Virus record (IMG/VR): IMGVR_UViG_3300042879_003514
Coordinates: 31,303-95,302 of that record
Length of the DNA: 64,000 bases
Reading direction: 5' to 3' (one strand)
Source: a virus
Below, piece by piece: positions 37,507 to 57,901 of the stretch (the stretch's first letter is position 1; each line of letters opens with the position of its first letter). Both the position numbers and the translations under genes were made by a program. The notes beneath the pieces were generated by a model that saw only the letters and a program-made list of their open reading frames with translations, made no database searches and was not told the DNA's origin.

Positions 37507-37515
37507 AATTAATAC

Positions 37516-39033: not shown

Positions 39034-39034
39034 T

Positions 39035-40534
39035 TTAACACTTCTTTATAAATTCTTTAGTAACTGTATAATTTTTATTAGATACTAAACTAGTATGAGA
39101 AATTAATAACCAATCCTTTGGAGTTGCAGAACCTAAATAGTCTTTAACCGCTTGGTCTAAAGGTTCGAGTACACCAGTTGGTCTAGCACTTGTTGCAACA
39201 CATACATCTGAGCTACTAGCGCTACTAGTAAAAGAAATGCGTTTAGCACTACATGCATTTATATCTTGAATTAGTGTTCCGTATGAAGGAATTATATGCT
39301 CAACAATTTGGCGCTGTGGTTCTGTTATATCTACCACAAGTTCTCTTTTATATCCATCACCATCAACACAGTCATTATTATTTGACGATGAAGACCATTC
39401 AAAAACAAAATTTATAGTGCCTTCTGAACGAGATTTCGATACAGACGATGTTGATGGTTTTATTACTAATTGTTGTTGAGGGTCTTGTTTAGGATCATCG
39501 TCTAAACCTTTGCAATTTCCAACAGAAGATCCGCCAACCCCACCGCCCACAGGAGGACAATTTGGTTTTTCATTTAAAATTAAGGTTTTTCCATTGCTAT
39601 CAAACTCTTTTAAGTAATTATACTTATTTATAATTTTATCAAATGCTTCTTCTGCTGAAGCTAATTTTGAGCTTGATGCTGTATCTGGTAAATCAATAAG
39701 ATCTGTCCAAGAAATTGATGCTAATCCTATAATTGATCCAGTAATTCTTTTTGATTCTTCTTTTTCTTGGTATGTTTTATTATGTTCAAATTCTAAATCT
39801 ATAAATGCCCCTGTTGAAACAGAAGGTGGTAGCAATATTATATCAATAGAGAACGATGTTTCTGTTGAAGTAACCTCTAAAGATCTAGACTGAGCAAAAG
39901 GTTTCCAGTTTTTATATGCGCTTATAAGAGGGTGGTTAGGTATATATGCGACAAATTTTTTAATTAGTCGTAATGCAATTTCTTGAGGATTTGACGAATC
40001 ACATAATGGCCTACACGATGCGGATGCTTTACAACTGAATTTTACATAAGATTTCGATATATTGTTTTGATCATTTAGAAATACAAAACCGTGAGATTCT
40101 TCCCCAATTTCTATTGTTTCCGACTTGGATATGGAGACAACATGATCATCAACAGTTATTCCCATAGAATTTGGTGGAATAGATTTTAATTTAGTTTTAA
40201 TTTCTATTGTAAAAGACCCTTGGTTGACCCACGATGGGTCTGGTCCTTGGTCTATGCTAACATTAGTAATTTTACCCATACCGCTATATAAATTTGGAAT
40301 ACTAACACTAACACAACCACTATCTTGACCTAAATTTCTTATTTGAGCTAGTTTAGACATTACCGTTGCGCCAGATTTAGCCGCTTGAGAAACAGAAACC
40401 GTGCCTGTGACAGTAAATATTGTTGAGCCGCCTATTATTTCACCATTTGGACTGGTAAAATACTCATACGACATATTAGCAAATGGCGCGTATGTTTCAT
40501 CTAGGGTTACAGAACCTATAATAATAGTAGGCAT
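39035..40534 (-). CDS. tail protein, paralog of 37516..39033
   Basis: APFANMSYEY...IGG...TG; EHIIP...LIQDI. Confidence 0.6.
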   Translation of the reverse strand: MPTIIIGSVTLDETYAPFANMSYEYFTSPNGEIIGGSTIFTVTGTVSVSQAAKSGATVMSKLAQIRNLGQDSGCVSVSIPNLYSGMGKITNVSIDQGPDPSWVNQGSFTIEIKTKLKSIPPNSMGITVDDHVVSISKSETIEIGEESHGFVFLNDQNNISKSYVKFSCKASASCRPLCDSSNPQEIALRLIKKFVAYIPNHPLISAYKNWKPFAQSRSLEVTSTETSFSIDIILLPPSVSTGAFIDLEFEHNKTYQEKEESKRITGSIIGLASISWTDLIDLPDTASSSKLASAEEAFDKIINKYNYLKEFDSNGKTLILNEKPNCPPVGGGVGGSSVGNCKGLDDDPKQDPQQQLVIKPSTSSVSKSRSEGTINFVFEWSSSSNNNDCVDGDGYKRELVVDITEPQRQIVEHIIPSYGTLIQDINACSAKRISFTSSASSSDVCVATSARPTGVLEPLDQAVKDYLGSATPKDWLLISHTSLVSNKNYTVTKEFIKKC

Positions 40535-40567
40535 AATTATTATATCCTTTAATTTTCCTAATTAAAT

Positions 40568-43500
40568 TTATAGATTAATAATACTATCAGAGAGTTTAAA
40601 CCAATTATTATCCCCACCATGTACTATGGTTATATTATAGCCACCAGGCAATGTATGAAACGCACTTATCAAATCAGAAGATTTGTATATAGATATATTA
40701 TAAAATGATGAATTAATATTAACAATAGTAAATTTTTTACCCATATATAATCCTGTGCCATTTGGTAGATAAAGATTTGTGGCTCCAGAAGGATATAGAA
40801 ATTGATATTCAGCATCATTAGCAGATAAATACTTTGGAGTTACTGGAACACCAGAGGTTGCTAATGTTTCATATCTAAGTTTACTGTTAACATATGGATT
40901 ATTAGAATCATTTTGATAAATTATTTTATGTATTTGATTAACTCCAGTTGGCATAACAGATGGAGTTATATTTAATCCTGTTGGCGTTGTTAGAAAATTA
41001 AAAGTTAATCCACTGTTAGTAATTAGATTACCACTAGAAATTATATTTTGAAAAATTCCAGTTAAACCTAGTACAACATTACCAGAAGCAAAACTAAAGT
41101 TTGCATTACCAGAAGCTGTTAGGTTATTAGTAATTATATTAGAGCTAAAAATACCAGTTCCAGAACATACTAAGTTGGTTCCTATGGTTATACCAGAATT
41201 TGTAATAATATTTCCAGAACTAATTAAATTACCACCAATAGTAACTCCAGAGTTTATAATAGCATTACCAGATACTAGGATATTTCTATTAAATACAAAG
41301 TTTTCAGAACTGCTTTTGATAATCGATCCACTTGGATCTAGTATAATATGATTTTGATTATTAACATATAAACGAATACTGTTGTTACCGCTAAATGAAA
41401 CCGATTCATTATTAGATAATATAATATTGCTATTACCACTAGATGTGATACCAGAACCAACTAAAATATTAGAATTTCCAATAGAATTAGATAAATTAGC
41501 AAGAATGACTGAGTTATTACCAGAAATATCTGATGAAGAACCGAATATGAAATTAGACAATCCACTTGTGGAAGAATTATCCCCAACAAGAATATTATTA
41601 TTTCCAGATGAATATAGTCTTGATCCAACAAGAAATCCTCCATCACCATATAATTCATTATTATAACCAAATAAAATACCAGTATCAGATATTGTTCCAA
41701 GATTACCAACCCCAAGAGCAAACAATGTTGCAGATATATCTGTGTTTGATACGTTATTGCTACGCCCAAAAGCAACAGAGCCATTGGCTGTAACAGTATT
41801 ACTTTCTCCGATACCAACAGAATAGTCTCCATGAACGCCGTTTAAGTAACCACATGAAACTGAGTATAGTCCGTTATTAGCATTGTCGATACCAATTGAG
41901 ATGCCATAGTCTTCATCAATAGTGTTGCTATTACCAACAATAACAATTCCCATATTGCCACTAGTTAAACAACTATTATCACGACCAATTATTGTGTTAT
42001 CAATGCCAGAACATGTGATATTTTTGCCGAATAAAATATTATTAGTACCAGTCGCCTGAATATCTCTACCAAATATAAAATTACCACTATTAATTATATT
42101 ATTATTAAATCCATAAATAACATTATTGCCTGAATAATTATTAACTCCTATTGTTAGATTATTATTAGATAAATCAAGTATATTAAGCAAGGATCCTGTT
42201 GAGGCGATTTTGCAAATAAACTTTGAATTTTCATTTCCATTAGTTGTGTTATTGATATTAGAAGATAAAACTAAACCGGTCTTAGATACGCCACTAGAAT
42301 TTACAAACTTAAAAACAATATTTTCATTAATACCAGAAGATAAAATAGAGGTATTATCAATAATAAAATTAATATCATTATTAGATAGTGTTGAATATAC
42401 TAAAGATCCCGAGCCACCTAAACTTAAATTAGTATTATCATTTAATGCTAAGTAAACACTATTGCTGCCAGTAACACTAACTCCAGAACCTCCAAATACC
42501 CAGATATTATTTCCAGAGGCGGTGTGGTTAAGACCAAATAATCCGCCGTATGTTCCAGATGATAGGATTAAAGAATCTCCAATAGCTATACTATTTTCTG
42601 CACAAATATTATGGAATGATCCTATAACAATATTATTTCCTTCATTAGATGAGGCGCTTCCTATTACAACACCATTAGTATTTTGGTTATTAAATCCAAG
42701 AACTACTCCGTCAGAACTAAAAACTGCAACATCTTCGTTAGATCCATTATTAAGAGCCTCTATATGAATAGAAGAATTTTCACTAGAATTTAGGGCCGAG
42801 TCAATAATAGAATAAATTCTATTATAGCTAACACTACTATTACTACTATTTAATCCAGAGAATACTATAGAGCCAACTATATTATTTGTTGTTATTCCGC
42901 TTTGAGAATTATTAGAAAAAACTATTTTTGGACCAGAACCGCTGTTGTATATAGTGAGTCCATTTCCACCACTAGCATTGATAGTTAAAATATCATTTGG
43001 ACTAGATGAGTTAATGCCAATTTTATTAGTACTACCATCAATAAAAAACATGTGGGTTCTACCAGTACCCTCAACTCTAAAACTATTAGCATGAGACTGT
43101 TCGTTAAATACTGTGGTGGAGCCAATATATCCTGGTAGAATATTATGAGCGGTAGAAATATTTCCAGTACCACCAATTAATATGGCTTCATTAACACGAT
43201 CCCAACTCAACGCATTTGTGCCACTAAATGCACTATCATATTTAAATTGTATTGCGCCATTATTGCCATATGGATAAGAAGATTCTAAGATAGGATCAAG
43301 AGTTACCCATCCGCTCTGAGATGGAACAGAAACTATTTGTAGATAATCTTTTATAATAGAAATATCATAGGTTCCCGTACCATTAATAGTTTGAGATGAG
43401 TCTGGAGTTAATAGAATAGCATTTGCTTGTTCGTATTGATTGCCTATTGTTTTATCAAGCACAAAGCCTAATACAATTGGATCAGATCCTGATGTTACAG

Positions 43501-43933
43501 GTGGTAAAGAAACAGTTACACCCGAAACAGATGAGTCTACTATATATGTTGCGGATACGTTGGGTGCTGTGAAACTTGCGTTTTTTTCTTCTAAATTAAT
43601 ATTATTTAATGAATTTGAACTATCGCTACTAATAATACTTTCTATATATTTAGTACCAGAAGTAAAGCTTACTAAACTATTACTACTGCTTGAAGATATA
43701 ACTTTCTCTCTGACCAAAATATTTAAGCCACCACTAACCTGAATGTACCCAACACCAATTTCCCACTCAAAATTAGTATCTAGTCTATAAATATAGTAAT
43801 TAAATTTATTAGATGATCCTAATGCTGATACAAATGTGCGAAATCCTAGTGGTGCGCCATTAAGCACAAAATTTCCAGTGCCAGTTGATACAGAAGTTTC
43901 TTGAACTTTATTCGCATAGTATTTAATTGACAT
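40568..43933 (-). CDS. tail fibre/adhesin with YadA-head-like beta-roll repeats
   Basis: N-terminal VQETSVSTGTG module; about 14-residue NSIAIG/NNILFG repeats; Ser/Asn/Gly-rich. Confidence 0.7.
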   Translation of the reverse strand: MSIKYYANKVQETSVSTGTGNFVLNGAPLGFRTFVSALGSSNKFNYYIYRLDTNFEWEIGVGYIQVSGGLNILVREKVISSSSSNSLVSFTSGTKYIESIISSDSSNSLNNINLEEKNASFTAPNVSATYIVDSSVSGVTVSLPPVTSGSDPIVLGFVLDKTIGNQYEQANAILLTPDSSQTINGTGTYDISIIKDYLQIVSVPSQSGWVTLDPILESSYPYGNNGAIQFKYDSAFSGTNALSWDRVNEAILIGGTGNISTAHNILPGYIGSTTVFNEQSHANSFRVEGTGRTHMFFIDGSTNKIGINSSSPNDILTINASGGNGLTIYNSGSGPKIVFSNNSQSGITTNNIVGSIVFSGLNSSNSSVSYNRIYSIIDSALNSSENSSIHIEALNNGSNEDVAVFSSDGVVLGFNNQNTNGVVIGSASSNEGNNIVIGSFHNICAENSIAIGDSLILSSGTYGGLFGLNHTASGNNIWVFGGSGVSVTGSNSVYLALNDNTNLSLGGSGSLVYSTLSNNDINFIIDNTSILSSGINENIVFKFVNSSGVSKTGLVLSSNINNTTNGNENSKFICKIASTGSLLNILDLSNNNLTIGVNNYSGNNVIYGFNNNIINSGNFIFGRDIQATGTNNILFGKNITCSGIDNTIIGRDNSCLTSGNMGIVIVGNSNTIDEDYGISIGIDNANNGLYSVSCGYLNGVHGDYSVGIGESNTVTANGSVAFGRSNNVSNTDISATLFALGVGNLGTISDTGILFGYNNELYGDGGFLVGSRLYSSGNNNILVGDNSSTSGLSNFIFGSSSDISGNNSVILANLSNSIGNSNILVGSGITSSGNSNIILSNNESVSFSGNNSIRLYVNNQNHIILDPSGSIIKSSSENFVFNRNILVSGNAIINSGVTIGGNLISSGNIITNSGITIGTNLVCSGTGIFSSNIITNNLTASGNANFSFASGNVVLGLTGIFQNIISSGNLITNSGLTFNFLTTPTGLNITPSVMPTGVNQIHKIIYQNDSNNPYVNSKLRYETLATSGVPVTPKYLSANDAEYQFLYPSGATNLYLPNGTGLYMGKKFTIVNINSSFYNISIYKSSDLISAFHTLPGGYNITIVHGGDNNWFKLSDSIINL

Positions 43934-43950
43934 AGTAAATTAATCCCCTT

Positions 43951-46900
43951 TTAAGTTTGAACAATATTTAATGATCCAGCAGTTGCTTGGTTGATCGCAA
44001 GAGCTATCTTATCAAATACAGATTTTTGTATATTTTCTGCGTTAGTTTCATCAAGATTTCCTGCTCCTGGACCTTCTAATGTTACTGTTATTGTTCCATT
44101 TACTGGTATGGATCCTTGTGCTGTTAGTGTTATTGTGGATGGTATACGAGAGATTACACCGGCTAATTCTGTTACTGATGAACTAAATGGACCAATTTGA
44201 CCTTGTAGTATTGATGACGCATCTTTTATTGACACTGCTGCTAAGTTTAATGATCCTGCTGATGTTGTTAGATCAATTTGTGATAAAGATGATGCAACAT
44301 CAGATAGACCACCAAGTTTAGATGCTGCTTCATTAAATGCTCCAACAAATCCTCCAAAAGAACCAACATATGTTTGAAAATTACTAAATGCGGTATCCAA
44401 AGATGATGAGTCAACACTAATACTAGATACACCACCAGAAGTTGTGGGACTGGCTACTGGTCCAGCAGTTTCGTAGTATTGTGTATCTACAATACCCCCT
44501 TTATTAAATCGTTTTGGACTTATTGTTTGACCATTATTAATAGCTTTGAGAAGACCCATATTTTGTTTGGCCGCTTTTCTATTAATTACAAATTCGCCAG
44601 GAGTTAACATGGCCGGAACAGTATCTGTGCCTCGTGGTTGATATGGTACTAGCTTTCCTTGTGAAGCATATATTAATCCACCATTTGCTCTGGTTGTAGC
44701 ATTTAGAGCCCCTTTTCTTTTTCTATATTCTTCTGGTGCTCCTGGTAATACTTTTCCACTAAAAGGATCGACATTGCTTGATTGTGGTGATACAAATTGT
44801 CCTGTTACTGGGTCTCTTGGACTAGTTGTACGAGAGGGGGGTCGGGATAGAACATATCTTCCTCCTACTCTTCTTTGAGAAGCTGGATTCCTTAAATAAC
44901 TCGATATTTGTTGTTCTGTTGGCGTTCCTGTTCTAAATGGATCATTGGGATTATTAGGATATAATTCATCAAACCTGCTAAATATGTCATCATCAGGTTC
45001 TGGTCCTAAATTAGGTATATCTAAATCATCACCAACAGTTGGTATTCTGTCCATCTGTTGCATTAGAGCATCATTAACTGCATTTGTTCTTACTTGTTCT
45101 GCAAGATTAGGGAGCGGTGTTTGTTGTAATGCGCCTCTCACCTTATCTGCTGATTTTTCAGCCATATTATTCAATGGGTTTCTAATAAATGGTGGTCTAA
45201 CCTTTGGTGGTGGTTGGAAAACCATGCTGGGGAACTTTGGTCCAGTGGGGCTAGGAGTTAATGCTCCTACTGCTTTTGGTAATCCTCTGGCGCTTAACCT
45301 AGCAGCATCATCAATAAAACCAGCTCCAGGAATAACAGCGCTAACATCTGTGGCGGCCCCTACTACCGTCTCTCCTGCTGTTTGTCCAATAGAATCATAG
45401 AATTGAGCACTTTTTTGTTCTGGACTAGCATTTGGGTCTAATGGTTTTTGACTTAATCCACCACCATAAGCATTAACATTATATGTAGAATTAGCGCCTG
45501 TTAATATCCTTTGTAAAAAATCTTTGGGTTTTCTATGAGGAACTTTTCTTTCTAAGATACTATCTTTATTTCTTGGATGAGCTATTTGATAACCTAAATT
45601 ATAAACGGCTGTTCCAAAGTTTCTCGAACCAGCACCAATTAAACCAGCAACTTCAGAAACAAACGAGTCAGAGGCGTTTCGTCTTTTACTATTTCTACTA
45701 CCTTGGATTACATCTCTTACTATTGGTAATTTTGATAAAGTATCAAACATTTGCTTATTTGCCACATCAGTATCAAAATATGGATTAAATTGTCCATTAA
45801 ATGTTTCTATTTCTCTATCAAATCCAGCTTCTTTAATTCTTCTTTTTCGTTCTTCATTTGATGCGGCTATTCTATTTGTTGTCGTAGCGCCTCTTTGAGC
45901 AGCGTTCTGTCTAGCTCTAGCTATAATATCAGCAACAGAAGCATCTAGACTAGCTTGGTCTTCAAAACTTGGGGTCATGAAGAAACTATCCATCTCTGCT
46001 TGTGCAAGTTCTAATAGATTTTCTGATCCACTAGGGTCTAGCTCTGTAACTTTTCGTTGTAGAGCGCGTGTTACTGCTCTTTCTGGAGAAAATGCGTCCT
46101 CTCTTATCTTTCTATTGTATTCTATTTGTTCAATCGGAGATAAAAGATTAAATTCTTCTTTTCTTTTTTGTTCTTCGGTTATTGGTGCAGCATTTTGAGC
46201 TGCTTTTTCTCTAGCAGCTTGATCTGTTTTGCCTCTTTCAACTAAAAACTCGTTAAAACGAACAAAAGGAAATGGTGTTCCTGGGCCGCGACCAGCCCTT
46301 TTTTGTTCTTCCATCTGAGATTCTGTTAAGAATTGATAATCTATTGATCTTAAACCATACTTCTGCTCTCTTTCAAGTCGTGCTGCTTCAGCATCAGCAA
46401 TTTGTTTATTTCTAGCAGCTTGCTCTTCTGGTGTTCCTCGTGTTCTGAGAGTTATTTCAGCCTTTTCAGCTTCTAGTTTTGTCGCTCTCTTTTGTTCAAG
46501 AGCTTGTGCTTCCGCAGCATTTTTTGCTGATCTTTGTCTGAATTGATAGTCACCAATATAAGCATCAAGGTATGCTTGTTGTTCTGGTTTTAAATTATAG
46601 TATCCTTGGGGTCTTCCTCGATTAGCCTCTAGGTCTGTAAGAATATCGTCTGTGCTAGCATTAGAATATCTAGTTCCAGAACTAGTATACATTTGATTAA
46701 AATATACTCTTCCAGAATCCAATTGTGATTTTTCAGCTGCTGTTTTTTGATTTTTTTGAGTTCGTTCTCTGTCTTGAGCTTCTTTTTGACTTGAAGCTTC
46801 TCGTCTTTCTTCTAGTTTTGCCTTATAGTCAGCAGATGGTTCGCTTGCTCTTTGAAAATCTCTTAGTCCTTCTTGTTTTGATTCTATAGAAACGGCCTTG

Positions 46901-49900
46901 TCTTTTTGATATTGTTCAGATGCTTTGTATCTCTCAATAATTGTTTTAAGATCAGCTGTGAAACCAACACCTGGATTATCCATAAATCCGCCTCTGACCC
47001 ACCAATTTTGAGCAGATTCAATGGTCTGAGCGCTATCCTCAGATCCGCTCAAGCCCATAGCTTTGTTTGCTAAAGCTCTTTGCTCTTCTGCTCTTTTCCT
47101 TTCAGCATCTCTTCTGGCGGCTTCTGGAAGTCTTGAGATATTTGTCGCTACTCTGGCTGCTCTTTCCTGTTCTGCTGCTTCTTTTCTTGCTCTTCTCTCA
47201 TCTTCTAATCTTTCTTTAGGAGTTCTATTATTTAATCTTACTTGTTCTGCGGCTACAGCATCTGCTCTTCTTTGTTGTTCTTGTAATCTAGCATTCTTCT
47301 GTCTTTCTTCATAGGCTTCTATTCTTTTTTGATCCCTATCATCGTCTTCTTTTAGTTGTTTTGTGGCTCTTGCTTTATAGTCAGCATCGCTTTCTCCTTC
47401 ATTTCTTGGTATATTCTTTATTCTTTCATTAGTATCTGTCTCCATGCGTGTTTTAAGATCAACCTTCTTTTGTTCATAATTCAATGCTTCTTGTGCTTCT
47501 GTCTTTCTACGGAGAAGTTCCGTATATTCATTAGTTAGGCTTCTATCTTTATTAATTTTTTCTATTCCTACTTTTTGTCTATCCAAAGCTGCTTGATCTT
47601 TTGGATCTTCTATTACAGAATCTGTCCATTCTTGAATATATAGCCTTGTTTGGTTAACATACTCTGCAATTTGAGCATTTATTTCATCAAGTCTAGCCTT
47701 AGCTGCTTCTACTAATCCACCACCTTGTAAATAAACCATTCCACCCATACTATATCCTGCGGCCTTACCATTACTATTTATAGCTTTTAATAAAGAGAGA
47801 TTTTTCTTAGTAGCTTTAGCGTTAACAACAAACTCACCAGGAGTTAACATCGCAGGAACAGTATCAGTGCCCTTTGGCTGAAAATTAACATACTTACCAC
47901 GAGCAGCATATATTAAACCACCATTAGCTTTGGTCGTAGCAGTTGCAGATCCTGTGGTTGTTGTATTGTCTGCTGCGTTTGTAACTTTATCTGCAAAATA
48001 ATTTGCACTACCTTTTATAGCGGTTTCGAATATTCCGGCTGCCTCTAAACTTCTGCTTGCAAGAGCCTCATTAGCAGCTGCCATTGCTTTTATAGCATCA
48101 TTATATTCCTTAATAAAGTCAGAAACATTATATTCTGGAGCTTCTAATGTTTGCTTCACAGCATTAGCAAGATCAGCAGGAAGCATTTGAAAAATTTGTT
48201 CAAGAAAATCTCCTCTAGTTTTTAAAGCATCATCTGCTGTTTGTCCTCTCATTTTAATTTGTAATGCTTGTATGGCTCCTGGGATATCAAAACTATTCCC
48301 TTGACCAGCCATAATATTAGAAAATTTTTGTTGATTCATTATAAAATCTGTCATATATTCTGGATTATTAACATTAGATAATAAATCCATAAGAACATCA
48401 GTTCTTCCTTGTTTAGCCTTTTGAACCTCTTCTATCTTACTTAGCGCATTTGATGCTCTAGAAGAATCTGTGGCCAATTGCTTTAATGCTTTTTCTAAAT
48501 TAGTTGCTTGAGCATTAACTTGAGCAAATCTTACTTCTTCTTGAGGGGTTCTATTTTTATTTTCGTTTAATCTTTTTTGTTCTTCTTCTGTTTGTCTAAG
48601 TCTTGCTTCAATTGTTGCAACATCTGTTGTGCCACCATACGACTCAAATACTTGGGGACCACCTCTTCTATTATCACCAGCAAAAGTAACTCGCGTAAGA
48701 GATCTAATAGCATTATTAAAAGATTGATTTAACTGGTCTAATGCTACCGGTTCATTAAGAGTTTGAGATAATCTTAAAGAGCCTTCTGTTCTTGCTGACA
48801 CTGCCGCATTACTATATTCTTGAGCTAACACAAGACTTTCTGAGAGTTTAGAACCAAACCTTGTCACTTCTGCTGCTACTTCATTAGCAGCCTCACTCAT
48901 TTTATCAAGTTCACTAGATGATATGCCAACAGTATCAAAAAACTTTTGTAAGCCAGGATTATTTTTTGCTAACTCTGATAGTGTAACATCCGCACCACTT
49001 CCACTAAGATTATTAAATTCTCTTCTTAGGTCTTCTAAGATGGGAGGTAAAGAAGTTTTTGATAGTTTTAGTGGAGCAAGCAATTCTCTGATTGCTTTAT
49101 CAAACTCTCCACTAACATCTCCACCTGTACCTGACTTAACGGATAATGAACCAAATATACCCTGTATACCTTTTTCTAAGTTTTGTTTTACTGAAACCCT
49201 TTCTTTGGTTTGCTGTGTAAATTCAGGACTAAAATTTAATCTACTAGCTAAATTATCAATAGCTGATGATACTTCAGCCTGTGAATATGCTCTTAGATTT
49301 TTGAATATCTCTGTGTCTATTTTATTAGGTCTAGGCTGGAATTCACCACCGCCCTTAATGCCAACCTCAGCATTTATGTCTTGTACGTATTGACTAAATT
49401 CAGAGGATGCTCTTTGCACAGATGATACTGTATTCTGTAAGCTTTGAGAATACTGATTTGATGACTCAATTAGTTGTTTATTTATAGCTATATTTTGCTG
49501 TTTTGCTGTACTTTCTGCTTTATATGCTTCTACTAATCTACTAGTTGTTAATGCTATAGCTTGTTTAATTTCTGCTTCTTTTTTATTTCTTACAGTTTCT
49601 GGTAAAGTACGATCAGATTGTACAGCAGCTAATTTTGCTTCCAAATCTGTTATTGCTGAACCACCTCTGGCTATGGCAATATCTCTATCAGTTGCTCCAA
49701 CAGCAGTTCGTGCTTGATCAAAAGTTAACCCCCTTTTCAAAGCTTCTGATATTCCTTTTTGAGCAGCTTCGGCGGCTGGTCTGGCTGCTGATTCTAACTC
49801 TTTACTATATGATAATTCTTCTCGTTTGTCCATTTTGCCTATTCCAGTATCAACCAGATTAAGCATTGCAGCTTCAACAACTGTTCCTATAGCAGAGTAA

Positions 49901-52815
49901 ACTTGTCCTTCTATGGTTGCTGTTGGAACAAATTCTTCTGTTTTTGCCTGAGATATAACTTGTCCAGCATTTCTCAAGCCATCTATCGTGGTTCTAATCT
50001 CTCCAAATGAATCTGAGGTTGCATTAGTAGTTTTTGATAATCTTTCAAAAGCCTGACCAAGATTAGTTGATAATGTTTCAATTGATTTTTGAGCAGAAGA
50101 TACTCTTATTTCTCTAAGAGAAGCTAAATATGCTGATGCTGCCCCGGCAACAGCAGCAAGACCTACGGCAACAGCCTTCAACTGTGGGGGTAGGAACGAT
50201 AATGAGTCTACAACAGTTTTTGTAACTCCTGCTGCGCCAGCACCACCAGCAACAGCAGCACCCAACGCAGGAGCACCAGCCTTAGATAGTAAATCACCAG
50301 CTACTCCAGCTCCTAAAAGAAGACTAGTAGGACTTAGACCAGCGTCCTTTGCGGCCTTTTCTCGTCCTATTATATCTCTTCTTTCTGCTCTATCGTATCC
50401 TTGTGCTTTTAATTGTCTGGCTCTTTGTAATGTGTTGGTATCCGTTAATTGTTTAAACGACTGAATTACTTTATTAATAGATGATGTTAGCGAATCAAAA
50501 ATAGATGCGCCACCACCAGCAGCATAAGACTGAACAAAGCCAACAGAACCACCTTTATTATATCCACGAATTTTATCAGCATTATTTAATCTATTTAATT
50601 TATGATGGCCAATTCTTTGTGCTGCTTTTTTATTGATAACAAATTCACCAGGAGTTAGGAGTGCTGGAACAGTGTCATCAACCGATCCGCCACCAGCTAA
50701 TTTAGTATATTTTTCTGATGGTTTGTATTTAGCAAGATTGTATGCTATTCCGATATTTCCCAATTGAATCGAGTCTGCTTTTTGATTTTTTTTCTTTGTG
50801 AATCGTTTAATATAGTCTGTTTGCCCATCCTCAAGATAATATCTCATTAACTTATCTGCTAAAACAAAATCTGGAGTTCTTTCAGATCTATTTCTAACCT
50901 CAACTGGTCCTTTACCAGTGCCTATAATATCTACTGGATAATTACCGCCTTTATGAGTACCACGACCCAATTTGTCTTTAACTAATTTTTCGAATGTGTT
51001 TGATTGAACATCTTTGGAGGATTGAAGACCATATATAGTTTTATTAAAATTAATTGTATCTATACTATCTAAATTTTCTTCTACATACTTCTTCATTTTC
51101 ATGCTGTATAGTTTTTGTGGAGACACAGGGCCTCCACCAGCATATTTATTCATCTTATGTAGATTATTAATACCAATAGTCTCAACAGCTTTCTTTCTTA
51201 TAACAAACTCACCTGGAGTTAACATCGCTGGCACAGTATCTCCACTACCACCACCAGGAACCAATCCTCCTCTAGCAAATCTGCGTCTACCACCACCACC
51301 TAGGGACGAAGATAAACCGCTAACAAAGCTACCAATATTACTAATTCCTTTAACAGCAATAATAGCTGTCAATGCTGGTAAAACACTCTTTGCAGCATCA
51401 GCTATAGATATTAAAGCGCTAGCTAATTTTAATGATATATCTACAAAAGTTTGAAAGCCTTTGCTTTGTCCAACATCACGAACAAGACTAACAAATTGCT
51501 CTCTTACCTTTGTAATCTTAACCCCAAGTCCTTCTTGTGCTGTAGCAACGTCTTTGGCTAATGATCCAGCGCCTCTTTGAGCAACATTTAATGCTTCTTG
51601 AGCTGTTGCAAATTGCTGAATTAATGGAATAACCTTACCAACCTGACGAAAACCACCCAGTTCTTCTATAATAGCAGAAAACCTAATATCTCTTGTATCC
51701 AATTTACTTAGTCCATCACTAAGTCTTCTTACAGCTTCATAGGCTCCTACGAATTTACCTTCAACATCAGTTAATTCAACACCATATTGTTTAAGAGCTT
51801 CTATTGTACCTCCTCGTTGTATACGACTAAAAATAGTACGTAAACCTGTAGCAATAGTTTCCGCACTTTCACGAGTAGTTGCTCTTACGCTTGTAAATAC
51901 TGCTATAAATTCATTTAAAGCGTCTTTACCTTGGCTTACACCCTGACTAGCAGAAGCAAAAACACCGCCAGTTCTTTGGATAGCAGTGATAATATCACTC
52001 GCTTCAACAGCAAATTTAGCAGCAACTGCATTGATTGAGCCCAATGCGCTTTCTAAATCATTTGCGCTAATTCCGAACTGTTTCATTAGAGCAATACTGC
52101 CCTCAACTGTGCTATTCATATCATCAAAAGACGGAGCTAAAGATGACTTTGCCAATGCTTCTAAAGCAGTTTTAGTTTCTGCCGCAGATAAGCCTGCCTG
52201 AGATAGTGTTACTGATACTTGAAGTAGAGATTGAGATGTAACACCCAAGCCTTGTGATAATCTTACAATTTCTTGAGACAATCCTTTAAGACCAGTTGCT
52301 GTTTCAAATGTGACTTGTTGCAGTCTAATAAATTCTTTATTAAAATTTAAAAATTCACTATATGCTGAACCAAAAGCTTTTGCAATAGCATATATGCTTC
52401 CTGTTACTATAGAAAACGCGGCAAATCTACGAACAGCCAACCCGGCTTGCCTACCAAATGCTTCAATTTCAGATGTAGCCTCTGCTGTTCTTGTTCTAAC
52501 ATTATTAATAGCATTATTAGCATTATTAAGATTATTGCCTAAGTTTCCAATATTTGTGGAAGCACTACCAATACCAGCTCCTAGTGTTCTCAAAGCAGAA
52601 TTAAGAGAAGCAGCGTTTGATTCAGCATCCCTTAATGCTCTGCTTAAATTATTTATATTAGAAGTAATTCCCTGTATATTACTAGACGCTCTAGGGTCTA
52701 TTTTCAGATCTAAACTTACAGTAGATAATTGTTTACGTATATTTCCAACAACTTGATTAAGATTACTAGGTCCTCTTAAATTAAGTTCTGCTGTTAAGTT
52801 AAAAGATGATGCCAT
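43951..52815 (-). CDS. tail tape measure protein (TP901-like core) with repeated modules and inserts
   Basis: LSQAGL...INAVAAKFAV...IATGLRTIFSR core; long Ala-rich helices; four DTVPAxLTPGEFV modules. Confidence 0.9.
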   Translation of the reverse strand: MASSFNLTAELNLRGPSNLNQVVGNIRKQLSTVSLDLKIDPRASSNIQGITSNINNLSRALRDAESNAASLNSALRTLGAGIGSASTNIGNLGNNLNNANNAINNVRTRTAEATSEIEAFGRQAGLAVRRFAAFSIVTGSIYAIAKAFGSAYSEFLNFNKEFIRLQQVTFETATGLKGLSQEIVRLSQGLGVTSQSLLQVSVTLSQAGLSAAETKTALEALAKSSLAPSFDDMNSTVEGSIALMKQFGISANDLESALGSINAVAAKFAVEASDIITAIQRTGGVFASASQGVSQGKDALNEFIAVFTSVRATTRESAETIATGLRTIFSRIQRGGTIEALKQYGVELTDVEGKFVGAYEAVRRLSDGLSKLDTRDIRFSAIIEELGGFRQVGKVIPLIQQFATAQEALNVAQRGAGSLAKDVATAQEGLGVKITKVREQFVSLVRDVGQSKGFQTFVDISLKLASALISIADAAKSVLPALTAIIAVKGISNIGSFVSGLSSSLGGGGRRRFARGGLVPGGGSGDTVPAMLTPGEFVIRKKAVETIGINNLHKMNKYAGGGPVSPQKLYSMKMKKYVEENLDSIDTINFNKTIYGLQSSKDVQSNTFEKLVKDKLGRGTHKGGNYPVDIIGTGKGPVEVRNRSERTPDFVLADKLMRYYLEDGQTDYIKRFTKKKNQKADSIQLGNIGIAYNLAKYKPSEKYTKLAGGGSVDDTVPALLTPGEFVINKKAAQRIGHHKLNRLNNADKIRGYNKGGSVGFVQSYAAGGGASIFDSLTSSINKVIQSFKQLTDTNTLQRARQLKAQGYDRAERRDIIGREKAAKDAGLSPTSLLLGAGVAGDLLSKAGAPALGAAVAGGAGAAGVTKTVVDSLSFLPPQLKAVAVGLAAVAGAASAYLASLREIRVSSAQKSIETLSTNLGQAFERLSKTTNATSDSFGEIRTTIDGLRNAGQVISQAKTEEFVPTATIEGQVYSAIGTVVEAAMLNLVDTGIGKMDKREELSYSKELESAARPAAEAAQKGISEALKRGLTFDQARTAVGATDRDIAIARGGSAITDLEAKLAAVQSDRTLPETVRNKKEAEIKQAIALTTSRLVEAYKAESTAKQQNIAINKQLIESSNQYSQSLQNTVSSVQRASSEFSQYVQDINAEVGIKGGGEFQPRPNKIDTEIFKNLRAYSQAEVSSAIDNLASRLNFSPEFTQQTKERVSVKQNLEKGIQGIFGSLSVKSGTGGDVSGEFDKAIRELLAPLKLSKTSLPPILEDLRREFNNLSGSGADVTLSELAKNNPGLQKFFDTVGISSSELDKMSEAANEVAAEVTRFGSKLSESLVLAQEYSNAAVSARTEGSLRLSQTLNEPVALDQLNQSFNNAIRSLTRVTFAGDNRRGGPQVFESYGGTTDVATIEARLRQTEEEQKRLNENKNRTPQEEVRFAQVNAQATNLEKALKQLATDSSRASNALSKIEEVQKAKQGRTDVLMDLLSNVNNPEYMTDFIMNQQKFSNIMAGQGNSFDIPGAIQALQIKMRGQTADDALKTRGDFLEQIFQMLPADLANAVKQTLEAPEYNVSDFIKEYNDAIKAMAAANEALASRSLEAAGIFETAIKGSANYFADKVTNAADNTTTTGSATATTKANGGLIYAARGKYVNFQPKGTDTVPAMLTPGEFVVNAKATKKNLSLLKAINSNGKAAGYSMGGMVYLQGGGLVEAAKARLDEINAQIAEYVNQTRLYIQEWTDSVIEDPKDQAALDRQKVGIEKINKDRSLTNEYTELLRRKTEAQEALNYEQKKVDLKTRMETDTNERIKNIPRNEGESDADYKARATKQLKEDDDRDQKRIEAYEERQKNARLQEQQRRADAVAAEQVRLNNRTPKERLEDERRARKEAAEQERAARVATNISRLPEAARRDAERKRAEEQRALANKAMGLSGSEDSAQTIESAQNWWVRGGFMDNPGVGFTADLKTIIERYKASEQYQKDKAVSIESKQEGLRDFQRASEPSADYKAKLEERREASSQKEAQDRERTQKNQKTAAEKSQLDSGRVYFNQMYTSSGTRYSNASTDDILTDLEANRGRPQGYYNLKPEQQAYLDAYIGDYQFRQRSAKNAAEAQALEQKRATKLEAEKAEITLRTRGTPEEQAARNKQIADAEAARLEREQKYGLRSIDYQFLTESQMEEQKRAGRGPGTPFPFVRFNEFLVERGKTDQAAREKAAQNAAPITEEQKRKEEFNLLSPIEQIEYNRKIREDAFSPERAVTRALQRKVTELDPSGSENLLELAQAEMDSFFMTPSFEDQASLDASVADIIARARQNAAQRGATTTNRIAASNEERKRRIKEAGFDREIETFNGQFNPYFDTDVANKQMFDTLSKLPIVRDVIQGSRNSKRRNASDSFVSEVAGLIGAGSRNFGTAVYNLGYQIAHPRNKDSILERKVPHRKPKDFLQRILTGANSTYNVNAYGGGLSQKPLDPNASPEQKSAQFYDSIGQTAGETVVGAATDVSAVIPGAGFIDDAARLSARGLPKAVGALTPSPTGPKFPSMVFQPPPKVRPPFIRNPLNNMAEKSADKVRGALQQTPLPNLAEQVRTNAVNDALMQQMDRIPTVGDDLDIPNLGPEPDDDIFSRFDELYPNNPNDPFRTGTPTEQQISSYLRNPASQRRVGGRYVLSRPPSRTTSPRDPVTGQFVSPQSSNVDPFSGKVLPGAPEEYRKRKGALNATTRANGGLIYASQGKLVPYQPRGTDTVPAMLTPGEFVINRKAAKQNMGLLKAINNGQTISPKRFNKGGIVDTQYYETAGPVASPTTSGGVSSISVDSSSLDTAFSNFQTYVGSFGGFVGAFNEAASKLGGLSDVASSLSQIDLTTSAGSLNLAAVSIKDASSILQGQIGPFSSSVTELAGVISRIPSTITLTAQGSIPVNGTITVTLEGPGAGNLDETNAENIQKSVFDKIALAINQATAGSLNIVQT
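44535..51290 (-). repeat. four dispersed about 50-60 codon modules in the tape measure (cores 51205-51240, 50641-50676, 47830-47865, 44590-44625)
   Basis: GG...DTVPA(M/L)LTPGEFV(I/V)xxKA...; similarity visible at DNA level. Confidence 0.9.
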
Positions 52816-52829
52816 TTATTTCACCGATT

Positions 52830-52873
52830 AAAAATAAAAGACACCACAAGCGATTAAACTTGAGATGTCTTTT
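52830..52873 (-). terminator. hairpin + U tract directly upstream of the tape measure
   Basis: AAAAGACATCTCAAG-tttaatcg-CTTGTGGTGTCTTTT then ATTTTT on the - strand. Confidence 0.6.
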
Positions 52874-52897
52874 GATTTATATAGGGTAGTATGAGTA

Positions 52898-53779
52898 TTA
52901 ATTATCTGATTTGGTAATCTCTGAGACTGGTTGAGAAGACAAAGACGGCGAAGCTGTTTGTGGTTTTTCATCTTCCTTTTTTTCCTCGTCAACTATTGGG
53001 TTACCATTATCATCAATGAATGGTTTAAATTCTGTGATATAATCTCCATTTACGTCTACTGCATTCCCATTCTTGTCAACATATTTGCCTTGCTCATCAA
53101 CGAATCTACCAAACTCATCAATCAATCTACCATCAGCATCTGTTAATTGTCCCTTTTCATTAATTAATCTTAGTTTATCATCAACAAATTTGTATTTAAT
53201 TAAAAATTTATTTTCTGGTAATTTCTTTTCATAATCATTATCGAGTCCATACAACATATTGGCCAATACCTGGGCAGCTTTTACTGCAACAGGTTCTGCT
53301 GCGCGAGATAAGTAATCTTCATAATTTTTAAAATATTTATCTTTAGTATCTGAATACACCAATGATGCACTAATTAAATAGTTAAATCTAGCATTATCAG
53401 CCTGTCCTTCTGCTGTATGATTATCAAGATTGGTTCTAACAGAAATTAGATCTCGAATATCATCTCTAACATTTTTCATATCAATAGCTACTTTTTTAGC
53501 CTGTTTTAGACTAATACCACCCTTAGCAAGAGTTTTTTCATGATCCATTAATTCTTGTTGTAAAACAGCAAGCTTAGCTTGTTTAGAATCATCCCATAAT
53601 CCCTGATCCTTTAATAAATCATCAAGTCTAGCTCTTACAATACATCCAGATTTAACAGCATCAGAGAAAGCCTGATTGTAAACCTTCTGAGCCTCTCTTT
53701 GATCAGCAAGTGATGGCGACTTAATTGTAAAGTTTTGGTTTTTATTATCAATTACTATATCAAAAGAATCTGTAATCAT
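52898..53779 (-). CDS. putative tail assembly chaperone with DxxG repeats
   Basis: immediately upstream of the tape measure; heptad-like (I/V)DxxGx repeats at the C-terminus. Confidence 0.55.
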   Translation of the reverse strand: MITDSFDIVIDNKNQNFTIKSPSLADQREAQKVYNQAFSDAVKSGCIVRARLDDLLKDQGLWDDSKQAKLAVLQQELMDHEKTLAKGGISLKQAKKVAIDMKNVRDDIRDLISVRTNLDNHTAEGQADNARFNYLISASLVYSDTKDKYFKNYEDYLSRAAEPVAVKAAQVLANMLYGLDNDYEKKLPENKFLIKYKFVDDKLRLINEKGQLTDADGRLIDEFGRFVDEQGKYVDKNGNAVDVNGDYITEFKPFIDDNGNPIVDEEKKEDEKPQTASPSLSSQPVSEITKSDN

Positions 53780-54102
53780 GATTGATCTCCTGTGTCATTT
53801 TTATGTTTTAAATTATCGTTTATTAAAGTAACTCTATATTTATTTTGCTGATTTTCATCCTCAATATAATTAATGATATCATCAAGTGCCATTCTCATTT
53901 GGTTATTACCATGATTAAGAATAGATGTTCTAAGTATTTCCCACATATCTAAAAAATCCTGTTCTTTAGCAGTGAGGGGTTTATTAGAGTCCAATCCCCA
54001 TAGATAACCAAAAGATTCCTCAAATCTAACCAGTGATCCAATAATAGTTGTCTCAAATCTTTTACTAATCTGTTGAATTATTCCTTTTTTATTTCTGTTC
54101 AT
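53776..54102 (-). CDS. hypothetical protein
   Basis: operon packing in the tail module. Confidence 0.7.
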   Translation of the reverse strand: MNRNKKGIIQQISKRFETTIIGSLVRFEESFGYLWGLDSNKPLTAKEQDFLDMWEILRTSILNHGNNQMRMALDDIINYIEDENQQNKYRVTLINDNLKHKNDTGDQS

Positions 54103-54103
54103 A

Positions 54104-55132
54104 TTATTTAATTCCTGAGTTCTGTTCTGATAATCTATTTAGTAGTTCTTGTTTTACAATCGGAATATTTTCCCACTTTTCTTCCGGCTTTGCCTTTGCT
54201 GTTTCTATCAGTTGTTCTGCAAAAAGTTTTTCTCTTGGATTATTAGAATCCATAATAGCCTGAGCTTCTTCTGGACTACTAGCAAAAATAAAATTATGTT
54301 GATTATTCTTATTCCCAATTTTATTCTGTATAAGATTTTTTTTCTTTTCTTGTGCTGCTTTTCTATTATGAAATAAAAACCAGCCATCTAAAGCATCATC
54401 ATCATTTATTATATCTTCTGATGGGGCTTCTGGGTGTTGTCTAGCATTATCATACATCTTATGTAAATTTATTAAATATTTATAATCATCAGTTATATTA
54501 ATTAAATCTTTTTCTAGTTTACAACTTAATATATACGATCTCCAAAGATCAGATCTGGCTAATGCTTTCATATCGCTAACTTGTATGGTTTGATCAATAA
54601 TTTCTCTAATAAATATATTATGTAGTTTATTATAATTGCAATTATCTTCTTTTTGATTAAATAATAAATTATTATTTTTATCATAAATACATTTTTGTAT
54701 TATAAATTCATTTTTAATTGAAGAAGCGTATTCCTTAATTCCTAGAGAATCTAAAGATCTTTTTTTATTTAATAATTTAATATATTGGTTTTCTAATGAT
54801 TTTAATTGTTTTTTAAGCTTATCTTTAATTTTAAAATTAATAAAATTTTGAAAGATATCTATCTTTGTATCTTCTATAGATTTCTCAACAGCTTTTAATG
54901 TTGCTTCTTCATTTTTATTCCATAGATTATTAATTAATAAATAATATTCGATTTCATCATCTGTTAACCATCTTTTATCATATTTATTTTCTTCTATAGT
55001 TTTGTCGTATAGAATTTCTGATAAATATTTAATTTCAATAGAAGGAGATAAAACTTTATATGTTTCATTATGAATATCTATATAGTAATATCCTAATATA
55101 ATTCTATATAATATTTTTTCTAAATTTAACAT
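54104..55132 (-). CDS. hypothetical protein, possible tail assembly chaperone
   Basis: between tube genes and the tape measure; YDNARQHPEAPSEDIINDDDALDGW. Confidence 0.6.
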   Translation of the reverse strand: MLNLEKILYRIILGYYYIDIHNETYKVLSPSIEIKYLSEILYDKTIEENKYDKRWLTDDEIEYYLLINNLWNKNEEATLKAVEKSIEDTKIDIFQNFINFKIKDKLKKQLKSLENQYIKLLNKKRSLDSLGIKEYASSIKNEFIIQKCIYDKNNNLLFNQKEDNCNYNKLHNIFIREIIDQTIQVSDMKALARSDLWRSYILSCKLEKDLINITDDYKYLINLHKMYDNARQHPEAPSEDIINDDDALDGWFLFHNRKAAQEKKKNLIQNKIGNKNNQHNFIFASSPEEAQAIMDSNNPREKLFAEQLIETAKAKPEEKWENIPIVKQELLNRLSEQNSGIK

Positions 55133-55983
55133 GATGATACTTCATCAAACTTAATTACTGGTTTTAATCCTGATATGGTTTCATAGCTTGTAAAAGTAAC
55201 AGATCCTGTTTGTGGTTTAGAAGACTGACTAGCCTCACCACCAGAATACGACAAATCTGTGATAAATGCACTATTTACAGCAATTGAGATTCCACAAGAG
55301 CTAGCAGATAATGAATATTTAGTAGTATCTGGATCACCACAAGCCTGAGAAAATGCGTCTAGCACATATGAATCAACACCCTCTGTTAAAAAATCATATT
55401 TAATAGATGTTGTCATAGGAAACGACACCATGGAGGCATAGGGTTTATGAGTAGCAAATTCTGAAATATTTTCTCTGTTTACTGTAATATCAACAGTTAC
55501 TGCTGTTAAAAGGGTGGAATTTATTCCTGGCGGAGATGAACCAGAATAATCTTTTCTCATAAAAACTCGTTTTTCACCACCACAAGTTGATGAGCCTGAT
55601 CCGGCTGCTGCTTTACTATATCCAATATATGATTTTGTTACTAAAAAAGGACCATCTATAGTAAAAGAATATGAAATTCGATTTAGTAATGCCAAGTCAC
55701 AAACAGCAGACCCTGATCTATTCTTTAGTTCTATTTTAGAAACTTCATTAAAATCTGATACGCTGTGAACACCAGCAGAGTCAAGATACTGGCTGTAAGA
55801 TAATGTTATGTTTGGTATTTCTCCAAACTTGGCTATTGGACTACTATTATTAGGGGCAAAAATAGACTTAATAGATCTATTTAAACTATACTCAGCTGAA
55901 TATAATCCACACAATTGACTTCCACATTTACTTACGCCAAGCTGTGGAAATTGATTTAATAAAACAGTCTGTCCTTGAGCCAT
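55126..55983 (-). CDS. tail-tube-like protein (minor paralog)
   Basis: aligns with 56034..56855 (NRENISEFATHKPY vs NRESQYKLGQFKPF; YSGG vs FSGG). Confidence 0.55.
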   Translation of the reverse strand: MAQGQTVLLNQFPQLGVSKCGSQLCGLYSAEYSLNRSIKSIFAPNNSSPIAKFGEIPNITLSYSQYLDSAGVHSVSDFNEVSKIELKNRSGSAVCDLALLNRISYSFTIDGPFLVTKSYIGYSKAAAGSGSSTCGGEKRVFMRKDYSGSSPPGINSTLLTAVTVDITVNRENISEFATHKPYASMVSFPMTTSIKYDFLTEGVDSYVLDAFSQACGDPDTTKYSLSASSCGISIAVNSAFITDLSYSGGEASQSSKPQTGSVTFTSYETISGLKPVIKFDEVSSC

Positions 55984-56033
55984 AAACTTTTTCCTGTAAG
56001 TTTATTTTATTATATTAATTTAATAATAAATAT

Positions 56034-56855
56034 TTATGCAACTATTAGATTGTTCCAAGATGAGTAAGTATACTGAACTTCAACATTACCACCACCTGTA
56101 TCACCACCACTAAAGCCGATACTACTTAGTCTAGCATCCCCAATTGTCCAAGAAGAATTACAAGCAGTAATAACTTTAGTGAGTTTTTCTGTATCTGCTG
56201 GAGCGCATTTTTGTGGCTCTGTTGAACTAATAGCCCCGGCTTGTGGAATTAAAAGACTATACTGTAGTGTGCATTCAATTGGGAAGGTTACTGTTCTTAG
56301 AAATGGTTTGAATTGACCTAGCTTGTATTGACTTTCACGATTAAAATTGACACTAATACTAGCAGAAACAGCTCCGTCCATACCTTTTGTGTCGAAGTCT
56401 TGGCGTCTTGGTAAGTGTAGATTAGTATCATTTAGTGGAGAGAACGCTCCACCAGTAATGACTTCTTCTCCGGTATATGATAATTCTTCAGTGAATAAAC
56501 CATCAACACCAAAGTTAACACTATAGGAATTTAAATATGCGTTCTTAATTGTGAAACCTGTTGCTCCAGAAGCAACGCCGATTATAATTTCGTTTGTTTT
56601 TTGTAGTTCTGCTTCAATTTGTACGATATCGCCTGTTAGATTTAGCTTTAAACCTGGGCCACCAACTATGGATCTAGTGATAGTAACTTCTACTTCTGGG
56701 GTTACTGGAACAGCTTCTACGTGTTTAAGTTGACCTAGCTGGAAAACTGGTTCAATATTAGAATTTGATGTAAAACCAACGCTCTGAACTCCTTTAAGTG
56801 GAGTACCATTGAGTGAAACACCGTGTGTTGCATAAAATATACGCTCTAAAGCCAT
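56034..56855 (-). CDS. putative major tail tube protein
   Basis: own late-motif promoter; GVQSVG...VFQLGQ; position after the tail-completion gene. Confidence 0.6.
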   Translation of the reverse strand: MALERIFYATHGVSLNGTPLKGVQSVGFTSNSNIEPVFQLGQLKHVEAVPVTPEVEVTITRSIVGGPGLKLNLTGDIVQIEAELQKTNEIIIGVASGATGFTIKNAYLNSYSVNFGVDGLFTEELSYTGEEVITGGAFSPLNDTNLHLPRRQDFDTKGMDGAVSASISVNFNRESQYKLGQFKPFLRTVTFPIECTLQYSLLIPQAGAISSTEPQKCAPADTEKLTKVITACNSSWTIGDARLSSIGFSGGDTGGGNVEVQYTYSSWNNLIVA

Positions 56856-56903
56856 AGGAGTCTCCAGTATCTTGAATTGGTGCTATTGTAATTTTAATAA
56901 GAA

Positions 56904-56922
56904 CAACAGTAAACTATACACC
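56904..56922 (-). promoter_or_regulatory. putative late-promoter motif
   Basis: GGTGTATAGTTTACT in the gap upstream of the tube gene. Confidence 0.5.
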
Positions 56923-56926
56923 AGTA

Positions 56927-57901
56927 TTAAAAGGATCCGCATATAATTTCATTAGTGATGCGAATAACAGCACCAAACATTCTAATGTTAGTAAAATCAA
57001 TATCAGAAATTGTAATGTTTTTTAGTCTACATTCTTTCCATTTATAGCTATCATTTTTAACAATAGTATTGTAATTTTGTCCATTAATATTTATAGAACC
57101 ATCATAATTTAGTGGATAAACACCACTGTTGACAACAATATCTGTTTTATAAAGCTGCAATAGTCTATCTTCTTGAATCCTAATAATATCTACTATATTA
57201 TTTTTATCTGCGGGATTATCGGCCAATACATGGAGTAATATGTCCTGATTAAAAATTAAGTCTTTGCTACCTAATTGAAATGGTTCCTGAATTGATCTTG
57301 TTATAGTCTCAATAACAACAGCTGGTAATTGTATTCTGTATTCGCTACCTATAGAAAAATTACCCTTGTCTACATTTAATATTCCAGTTTTATCTTCTAG
57401 TGATCTAAATTGAATTTCTTTCCAGTATGGAAATTCTTCTGTTTTGTATACTTGAATGTTTCTATAACTATATTCTAAATGAACTGTTCCTGTTGCTGGT
57501 ATTGCCTGATTAAATATCACCTTTCCTTCTGGATAATTGATTTTATATCCAAGCGTTGAGTTACCAGTTGGAGCAGGATAAAGAGTAGAATTGACATAAA
57601 TTCCACTAATATTTATTGGTGATTGATTATTAAAAACTATTCCAGTTTCATAAACCCAATCTTTACGCGGTGTTTGCCAAACCGTATTAGTAGATTGATT
57701 TTTGTCTTCTGTGGGTTTTAAAACATGAAGATTAAAATTTGAAATATTTGTAGTTGGTATTTTAACATTTGTAAATCCACCAATTTTTATAAATCCCCAA
57801 TCTAAAAATGATTTATAGTTATTCTCAAGTTCATTAAGAAATTTCGTGGATCCTATATTTGTTACACCAGTAAATTCTGGTTCAAAAACACATCTAGACA
57901 T
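56927..57901 (-). CDS. putative tail completion/terminator protein
   Basis: QLPAVVIE...FQLGS...QDILLHVLA; neck-tail junction position. Confidence 0.5.
   Translation of the reverse strand: MSRCVFEPEFTGVTNIGSTKFLNELENNYKSFLDWGFIKIGGFTNVKIPTTNISNFNLHVLKPTEDKNQSTNTVWQTPRKDWVYETGIVFNNQSPINISGIYVNSTLYPAPTGNSTLGYKINYPEGKVIFNQAIPATGTVHLEYSYRNIQVYKTEEFPYWKEIQFRSLEDKTGILNVDKGNFSIGSEYRIQLPAVVIETITRSIQEPFQLGSKDLIFNQDILLHVLADNPADKNNIVDIIRIQEDRLLQLYKTDIVVNSGVYPLNYDGSININGQNYNTIVKNDSYKWKECRLKNITISDIDFTNIRMFGAVIRITNEIICGSF

Follow-up and report, generated by a model that had tools for sequence, protein, structure and literature searches.

Tape measure proteins (TMPs) are usually viewed as passive rulers of the phage tail, which occasionally carry one embedded enzyme. 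The locus described here raises the question of why a small sequence module should recur four times along a single ruler of this kind. An initial annotation of the 64,000-nucleotide stretch of viral DNA that contains the gene (hereafter the window; positions 31,303 to 95,302 of IMG/VR virus record IMGVR_UViG_3300042879_003514) interpreted the copies as in-frame recombination anchors and/or cleavage sites, which would turn the TMP into a delivery system with swappable effector cargo. The explanation that we favor, and that we consider probable though far from certain, is that of a mosaic TMP in which a conserved TP901-type N-terminal domain is followed by unrelated segments separated by four old modules, the edges of these modules being preferred sites of exchange.

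With respect to the gene itself, one open frame of 2,954 amino acids (P0001) occupies window positions 43951–52815 on the minus strand. Residues 181–386 match PF10145 (E = 2e-23; 83.7 bits against a cut-off of 33.2) and residues 142–451 match TIGR01760 (E = 3.5e-23; 82.2 bits against a cut-off of 28.8). The PHROG tape measure families also match this ORF, and its full-length homologues are 88–96% identical to it. Judged by these profile matches, the ORF is a TP901-type phage tail tape measure protein. Its N-terminal core (residues 1–504; 51304–52815, minus strand) comprises the helical TP901-type domain and was matched in 188 of 188 relatives; specifically, residues 150–460 were predicted by AlphaFold2 to be all helical with a pLDDT of about 90 (54 sequences). 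The opposite end of the protein, a C-terminal tail of residues 2780–2954 (43951–44478 including the stop codon, minus strand), is conserved in about 30–40 relatives and, by analogy with solved TMP C-termini, is presumed to be the hub-docking end. Two hydrophobic stretches, at residues 467–488 just before module 1 (51352–51417) and at residues 879–900 after module 2 (50116–50181), are candidate membrane-inserting parts by comparison with other TMPs.

The DNA comes from an uncultured phage of lake water, about 140 kb in size, which is represented by a 95-kb IMG/VR virus record with an estimated completeness of 67%. The TMP gene lies within a same-strand block of large ORFs, and ten of these flanking ORFs (35119–43933 and 52898–57901) gave no significant PHROG or Pfam match, two Pfam matches remaining below threshold. 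We therefore regard the phage as belonging to a poorly described lineage with an essentially unannotated tail module.

The four modules could be placed with confidence. As the initial annotation had reported, the core DTVPA[ML]LTPGEFV is present at residues 526, 714, 1651 and 2731 (window positions 51202–51240, 50638–50676, 47827–47865 and 44587–44625), with core-to-core spacings of 188, 937 and 1,080 codons. When limits were set by a profile built from family copies, each module measured 65–74 residues, with the consensus GG-h-h-Y-A..G.L....P.GTDTVPAMLTPGEFV.N..AT...L.LL..IN.G...YS.GG.V. All four lie on the minus strand and were found by the module HMM: module 1 at residues 505–570 (51106–51303), module 2 at 697–764 (50524–50727), module 3 at 1626–1697 (47725–47940) and module 4 at 2706–2779 (44479–44700). 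Modules 3 and 4 were also identified by BLAST, as was module 2, which matches the other three with E values of 3e-12 to 5e-11. Pairwise BLAST of the four module regions yielded E values of 2e-8 to 3e-28, a similarity far beyond chance; a whole-protein self-BLAST returned the trivial self match alone, and the copies were recovered by region-by-region comparison. AlphaFold2 modeled the module as three short strands and two helices with a pLDDT of 30–60.

Some details of the earlier description required adjustment. Modules 3 and 4 had been called near-identical, and 33 of the 42 residues quoted in support do match, but identity over 79 residues is 62% and the term is somewhat generous. The grouping of the copies into two pairs was the annotation's own, and what the family displays is a string of one module type. 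Module 1 is a position-fixed, core-adjacent subtype, found immediately after the core in all relatives. Doublet modules, with starts 40–60 residues apart, are frequent in relatives, usually at the second module position (for example residues 1825/1867 in G021 and 1222/1276 in G019); the window TMP has none.

At the nucleotide level, the four modules share an average column identity of about 70% and exact runs of no more than 14 nt, and recent duplication or gene conversion among the copies is thereby ruled out. The modules remain constant as protein, modules 3 and 4 being 62–79% identical, while their synonymous sites have diverged, a pattern that in sequence terms shows purifying selection.

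To place these copies in a wider context, we turned to the family of relatives. A full-library search with residues 1–1200 as the query returned 1,748 cluster representatives at E ≤ 1e-30; in IMG/VR, 80 loci with cores 41–70% identical were identified, complete TMP genes were obtained for 26 further relatives, and module statistics were taken over 184 distinct TMPs. In every family member, the start of the first module falls at residues 454–739 (median 520), and across the family the tail beyond the final module measures 171 residues in the median. Between these points, TMPs carry from 1 to 11 modules and reach lengths of up to 7,872 residues. Across the 184 TMPs, the number of modules rises with protein length (Spearman 0.75), and the commonest inter-module spacing is 1,000–1,200 residues. 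The initial annotation had named a fixed module number and conserved helical sequence between modules as findings that would speak against it; what these relatives show is a conserved core combined with variable module number and variable inter-module content. The longest frames in the collection (P0064, P0054/G021 and G024; loci L102–L107) encode 7,733–7,872 residues with 9–11 modules, as against the 5,002-residue TMP of Thermus phage P23-45, and would imply tails of about a micrometer if the proteins formed fully extended helices.

The regular spacing of the modules would be expected if these proteins had grown by tandem duplication of units of about 1,000 residues, with the modules as their best-preserved relic, and duplication of TMP units is among the proposals made for other phages (PMC3271669). 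Comparison of the window TMP with five long relatives speaks strongly against such an origin. In each of these proteins, the inter-module units have only the module (70–120 residues) in common, and the modules, far from being decaying relics, show the strongest conservation of any part of the protein. Simple tandem duplication is ruled out because the inter-module units share nothing except the module, and we regard growth by duplication in any form as very improbable. Across the family, alignment shows the modules to be the sole sequence common to otherwise unrelated segments.

A second explanation that draws on the scaling of module count with length, and on the typical spacing of about 1,000–1,200 residues, is that the modules are purely structural repeats of a very long tail. 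Variation between them would then reflect the tolerance of disordered linkers for insertions and deletions, and its coincidence with modules would be incidental. The distribution of exchange points bears directly on this proposal. In our seam test, we located the ends of blocks shared by relatives at 75% identity or more, and found 31–34% of them within 10 residues of a module edge as compared with 4.4% expected, a sevenfold enrichment that is drawn from related sequences and not from independent events. When module 1 is left out, left ends coincide with the start of a module in 27% of cases and right ends with the end of a module in 14%, as against 4.3% expected by chance near an edge of either kind. 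Left ends of conserved blocks are thus several times more frequent at module starts than expected by chance, which is difficult to reconcile with incidental coincidence. Only about a third of all block ends lie at modules.

Further evidence came from the relationships of individual blocks. Among six TMPs, one and the same pair of clades is recovered from the core, from the block between modules 2 and 3 and from the C-terminal block, and the block between modules 1 and 2 deviates from it. Specifically, this block is 93% identical between G005 and G007, for which the next block is 52% identical, and that of P0045 is about 50% identical to those of all others in the set. The nearest relative of whole blocks therefore changes between module-bounded units, as would not be expected of purely structural repeats. 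The junction between G005 and G007 falls 100–200 residues before a module and not at it.

A further view of exchange is offered by alleles of the window TMP. Five near relatives were found, and four of these are alleles with flanks 88–98% identical. All four differ from the window TMP at one slot, 0–13 residues before module 4, which identifies residues 2692–2711 (44683–44742, minus strand) as a hotspot of insertion, deletion and replacement. In P0152, an additional 116 residues follow residue 2692. In P0154, residues 2391–2692 are swapped for 343 others. In P0002 and P0153, about 15 residues are swapped for about 265 that include an HExxH motif (HEFGH), and the sequence again agrees with the window TMP from the first conserved strand of module 4 onward. 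The same region varies in metagenome contigs from run X16, which carry either 820 nt between 44686 and 44742, where the window has 55 nt, or 1,070 nt between 44734 and 45682, where it has 947 nt, so that two allelic forms are present together in one lake metagenome sample.

This hotspot also provides support for repeats with a purely structural role. It is a Pro-rich, low-complexity stretch that may tolerate insertions and deletions with or without an adjoining module, and the insertion in P0152 resembles a simple indel between short EEY repeats. Against this stand the complete zincin-like domain that is present or absent at a module edge, together with the block incongruence and the excess of left ends already described. 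On this evidence, we judge it improbable that the modules are structural repeats and nothing else. Taken together, the comparisons of alleles and relatives show, at the level of sequence, that module edges are the preferred sites of segment insertion, deletion and exchange.

The suggestion that the modules act as recombination anchors is consequently borne out in part. Block ends are enriched at module edges, blocks are incongruent, and alleles differ beside module 4, all as that suggestion would predict, but the copies share exact runs of only about 14 nt or less and no deletion from one module to another was encountered. The initial annotation had called for read mapping to detect such deletions; in the metagenome contigs, a type of data in which rare variants are hidden, none that was credible was seen. 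Contig joints such as that from 44632 to 47822 were considered as deletions and rejected, as they belong to contigs of other phages, in which similarity extends over only about 50 nt of the module core and is lost beyond it.

The content of the segments between modules was examined for signs of effector cargo. Insert 1 (residues 571–696; 50728–51105, minus strand), which separates modules 1 and 2, is a conserved small domain with the nuclease-like signature E...P-D...E-x-(K/R). Homologues follow module 1 in about 25–47 relatives, often with no second module close behind, and in our alignment (A5) the residues E44, P62, D64 and E74 are invariant, the (K/R) position being R in the subgroup of the window. 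Searches of insert 1 against PDB sequences and Pfam gave no match, AlphaFold2 modeled it at a pLDDT below 50, and a language model provided a weak lead to PDDEXK_14/16, which are PD-(D/E)XK families (score 0.87). Judging from the conserved signature residues, a nuclease-like fold is a plausible prediction for this domain.

Beyond module 2, residues 765–1625 (47941–50523, minus strand) form a segment in which an Ala-rich part and the hydrophobic stretch at residues 879–900 are followed by a shared block. This block, at about residues 900–1700, is 25–32% identical to its counterparts in relatives and always ends at a module. The 1,008 residues between modules 3 and 4 (residues 1698–2705; 44701–47724, minus strand) are in turn lineage-specific, with a charged helical part followed by a Pro-rich one. 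The composition of this segment was correctly said to differ from that of the Ala-rich core, with 37% D/E/K/R at residues 1698–2300 and 10% Pro at residues 2301–2705. Within the 188-member set, residues 1800–2650 are matched by P0002 only, and a wider search returned no more than the four close alleles plus a single relative (49% identity). In L114, a match to residues 2072–2542 at 42% likewise lies between two modules. Searches with this segment yielded no match in Pfam, no relative in viral contigs and no shorter free-standing homologue. The window TMP as a whole contains no Pfam domain besides PF10145, no HExxH motif and no toxin family. The proposal that its two inserts are effector cargo thus finds no backing, since neither has a domain match and insert 1 has no confident fold; effector delivery by the window TMP could only be inferred.

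The relatives provide a richer picture in this respect. HExxH motifs are present in 54 of 189 TMPs and fall into at least six sequence classes. Class II, the type inserted in P0002, lies directly N-terminal of a module, 92–140 residues before it, and contains invariant H, E, H, Y and E residues. Its model (pLDDT 65–89) matched zincin metallopeptidases almost exclusively in a wider structural alignment, with modest Z values of 6.9 for PPEP-2, 6.8 for PPEP-3 and 5.4 for thermolysin; a Foldseek search of the PDB with the zincin model gave no significant match. We accordingly describe class II as zincin-like on the strength of its coherent match list and its motif. Class IV motifs are located about 100 residues after a module. 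An HExxH class separate from class II, with the consensus TETVAHExGHLAD, is always found about 100 residues after a module, in mirror image of class II (L068, P0106, P0108, P0115, P0116 and P0133). In G019 (residues 4479–4784; L098:2313–3230, minus strand), a long polyproline tract lies immediately upstream of a zincin-like domain, the best structural matches of which are Pro-Pro endopeptidases; that the tract serves as a substrate or a linker is speculation on our part. Pfam searches of five relatives revealed nothing beyond PF10145 and no toxin family.

Additional insight into the module was obtained from better characterized phages. The module profile matches mycobacteriophage Douge gp16 twice (residues 965–1028 and 1412–1470; E = 7e-12), lambda gpH once (residues 750–784; E = 6e-4) and, weakly, the TMP of JBD30 (gp46; residues 1015–1066; E = 0.23). 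T5 pb2 gave no match to the profile, and annotated TMPs in 150 cultured phage records match the module in tblastn searches. On the basis of these homologies, the module is an old and widespread TMP element. Neither Pfam nor NCBIfam holds a model for it, and a possible resemblance of its core to the S24/S26 peptidase motif was dropped when searches of these two databases failed to support it. Similarly, the module showed no match to known autoproteolytic or protease families.

Solved structures cover the C-terminal ends of these proteins, and none of them includes the module. The Douge gp16 structure (PDB 8ZDO) contains residues 1658–1699 only, with the module outside, and that of JBD30 (PDB 8RK3) contains the last 33 TMP residues. 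For lambda, residues 818–849 of gpH are seen (PDB 8IYK; PMC12617516). Lambda gpH undergoes processing close to a Gly-rich region, its ejection precedes that of the DNA, and it matures to gpH* and gpHC, a fragment of about 14 kDa (PMC12617516). Since gpHC spans roughly residues 690–853, the lambda module lies inside gpHC and not at the cut, about 60 residues downstream of the approximate cut region. For JBD30, residues 1022–1066 were predicted by the authors to form a ‘hook’ and a cut at residue 1066 was hypothesized.

Such cuts bear on a third explanation, in which each module would be a site of proteolysis, so that the TMP gives rise to several proteins, each of which enters the host on ejection as a separate effector. 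Cleavage of TMPs has been documented for lambda and T5 and inferred from oligomeric states for phiTE, and the hypothesized JBD30 cut would fall right after a homolog of the module. In relatives, zincin-like domains adjoin modules (class II before, class IV after), and P23-45 provides a case of a TMP that bears an injected enzyme. Nonetheless, the lambda module sits within gpHC, most modules, including all four in the window TMP, have no protease-like neighbor, the module corresponds to no known autoproteolytic family, and the segments of the window TMP are not recognizable as effectors. We therefore think it unlikely that the modules delimit a train of effectors. We are similarly doubtful of a more elaborate scheme, according to which the giant TMPs of lake phages would be polyproteins cut at each module in the tail, such that changeable proteins (nuclease-like, zincin-like and others) are injected ahead of the DNA and the payload is reshuffled in frame via the shared modules.

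Returning to the mosaic TMP that we favor, each copy of the module would perform the same local structural job, for example that of a beta-hairpin clasp or a docking element that serves the TMP multimer within the tail tube, and might also mark a processing point. Viable recombinants would tend to join at modules because these are conserved in DNA and located at domain borders, which would make the modules seams in practice but not a specialized recombination device. Tail length would be set by the segments between modules, and in some relatives those with enzyme-like domains would enter the host along with the TMP.

In terms of known systems, the window TMP can be compared with several precedents. 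Lambda gpH carries the same module, roughly 70–100 residues from the C-terminus, and module 4 is 175 residues from the end of the window TMP. Lambda has one copy in 853 residues, however, whereas the window TMP has four in 2,954 residues and relatives have up to 11, and mosaic exchange at the module is undescribed for lambda. The single copy near the C-terminus that characterizes lambda and the JBD30 hook is accordingly not what is observed here, as module 4 alone of the four is near the end. JBD30 gp46 and Douge gp16 are alike in matching the module profile, the latter with two copies, but the resolved part of the TMP is the last 33–42 residues and neither paper calls the copies exchange seams.

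Other TMPs provide precedents for enzymatic content. T5 pb2 contains a metallopeptidase motif and is cleaved to pb2* and pb2C, mycobacteriophage TM4 gp17 contains the mt3 peptidoglycan hydrolase, and Thermus phage P23-45 gp96 is a TMP fused to a virion RNA polymerase. In all three, the ruler carries an enzyme that acts at or after entry, a feature to which the relatives with zincin-like HExxH domains correspond. In contrast, the window TMP has no HExxH motif or recognized enzyme domain, and a repeated module as a boundary marker is undescribed in these three proteins. Polymorphic toxins (Rhs, CdiA and T6SS effectors) offer a different parallel, as there too a conserved peptide motif borders exchanged variable sequence. 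They differ in having one C-terminal tip where the present family has several internal slots, and no toxin domain was found here in what is a structural protein of the virion.

The family as a whole, with its 1,748 cluster representatives, forms a large lineage in which the ruler attains up to 7,872 residues and a small module marks sites of exchange. It therefore offers a testable handle on the function of the module in lambda gpHC, on TMP processing and on the diversification of what phages inject first. With its four modules and without a proven enzyme, the gene in the window is a modest case. As alleles of its TMP co-occur in one lake, they make exchange accessible to study in a living population. 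In several studies of lake water (2019–2025), the TMP gene is tiled by metagenome contigs identical to the window. Zero-difference contigs across 43900–52900 were present in runs X6, X9 and X13, and runs from 2019 to 2025 contain half or more of the sampled words of the TMP gene. Given this recurrence, the phage population looks persistent.
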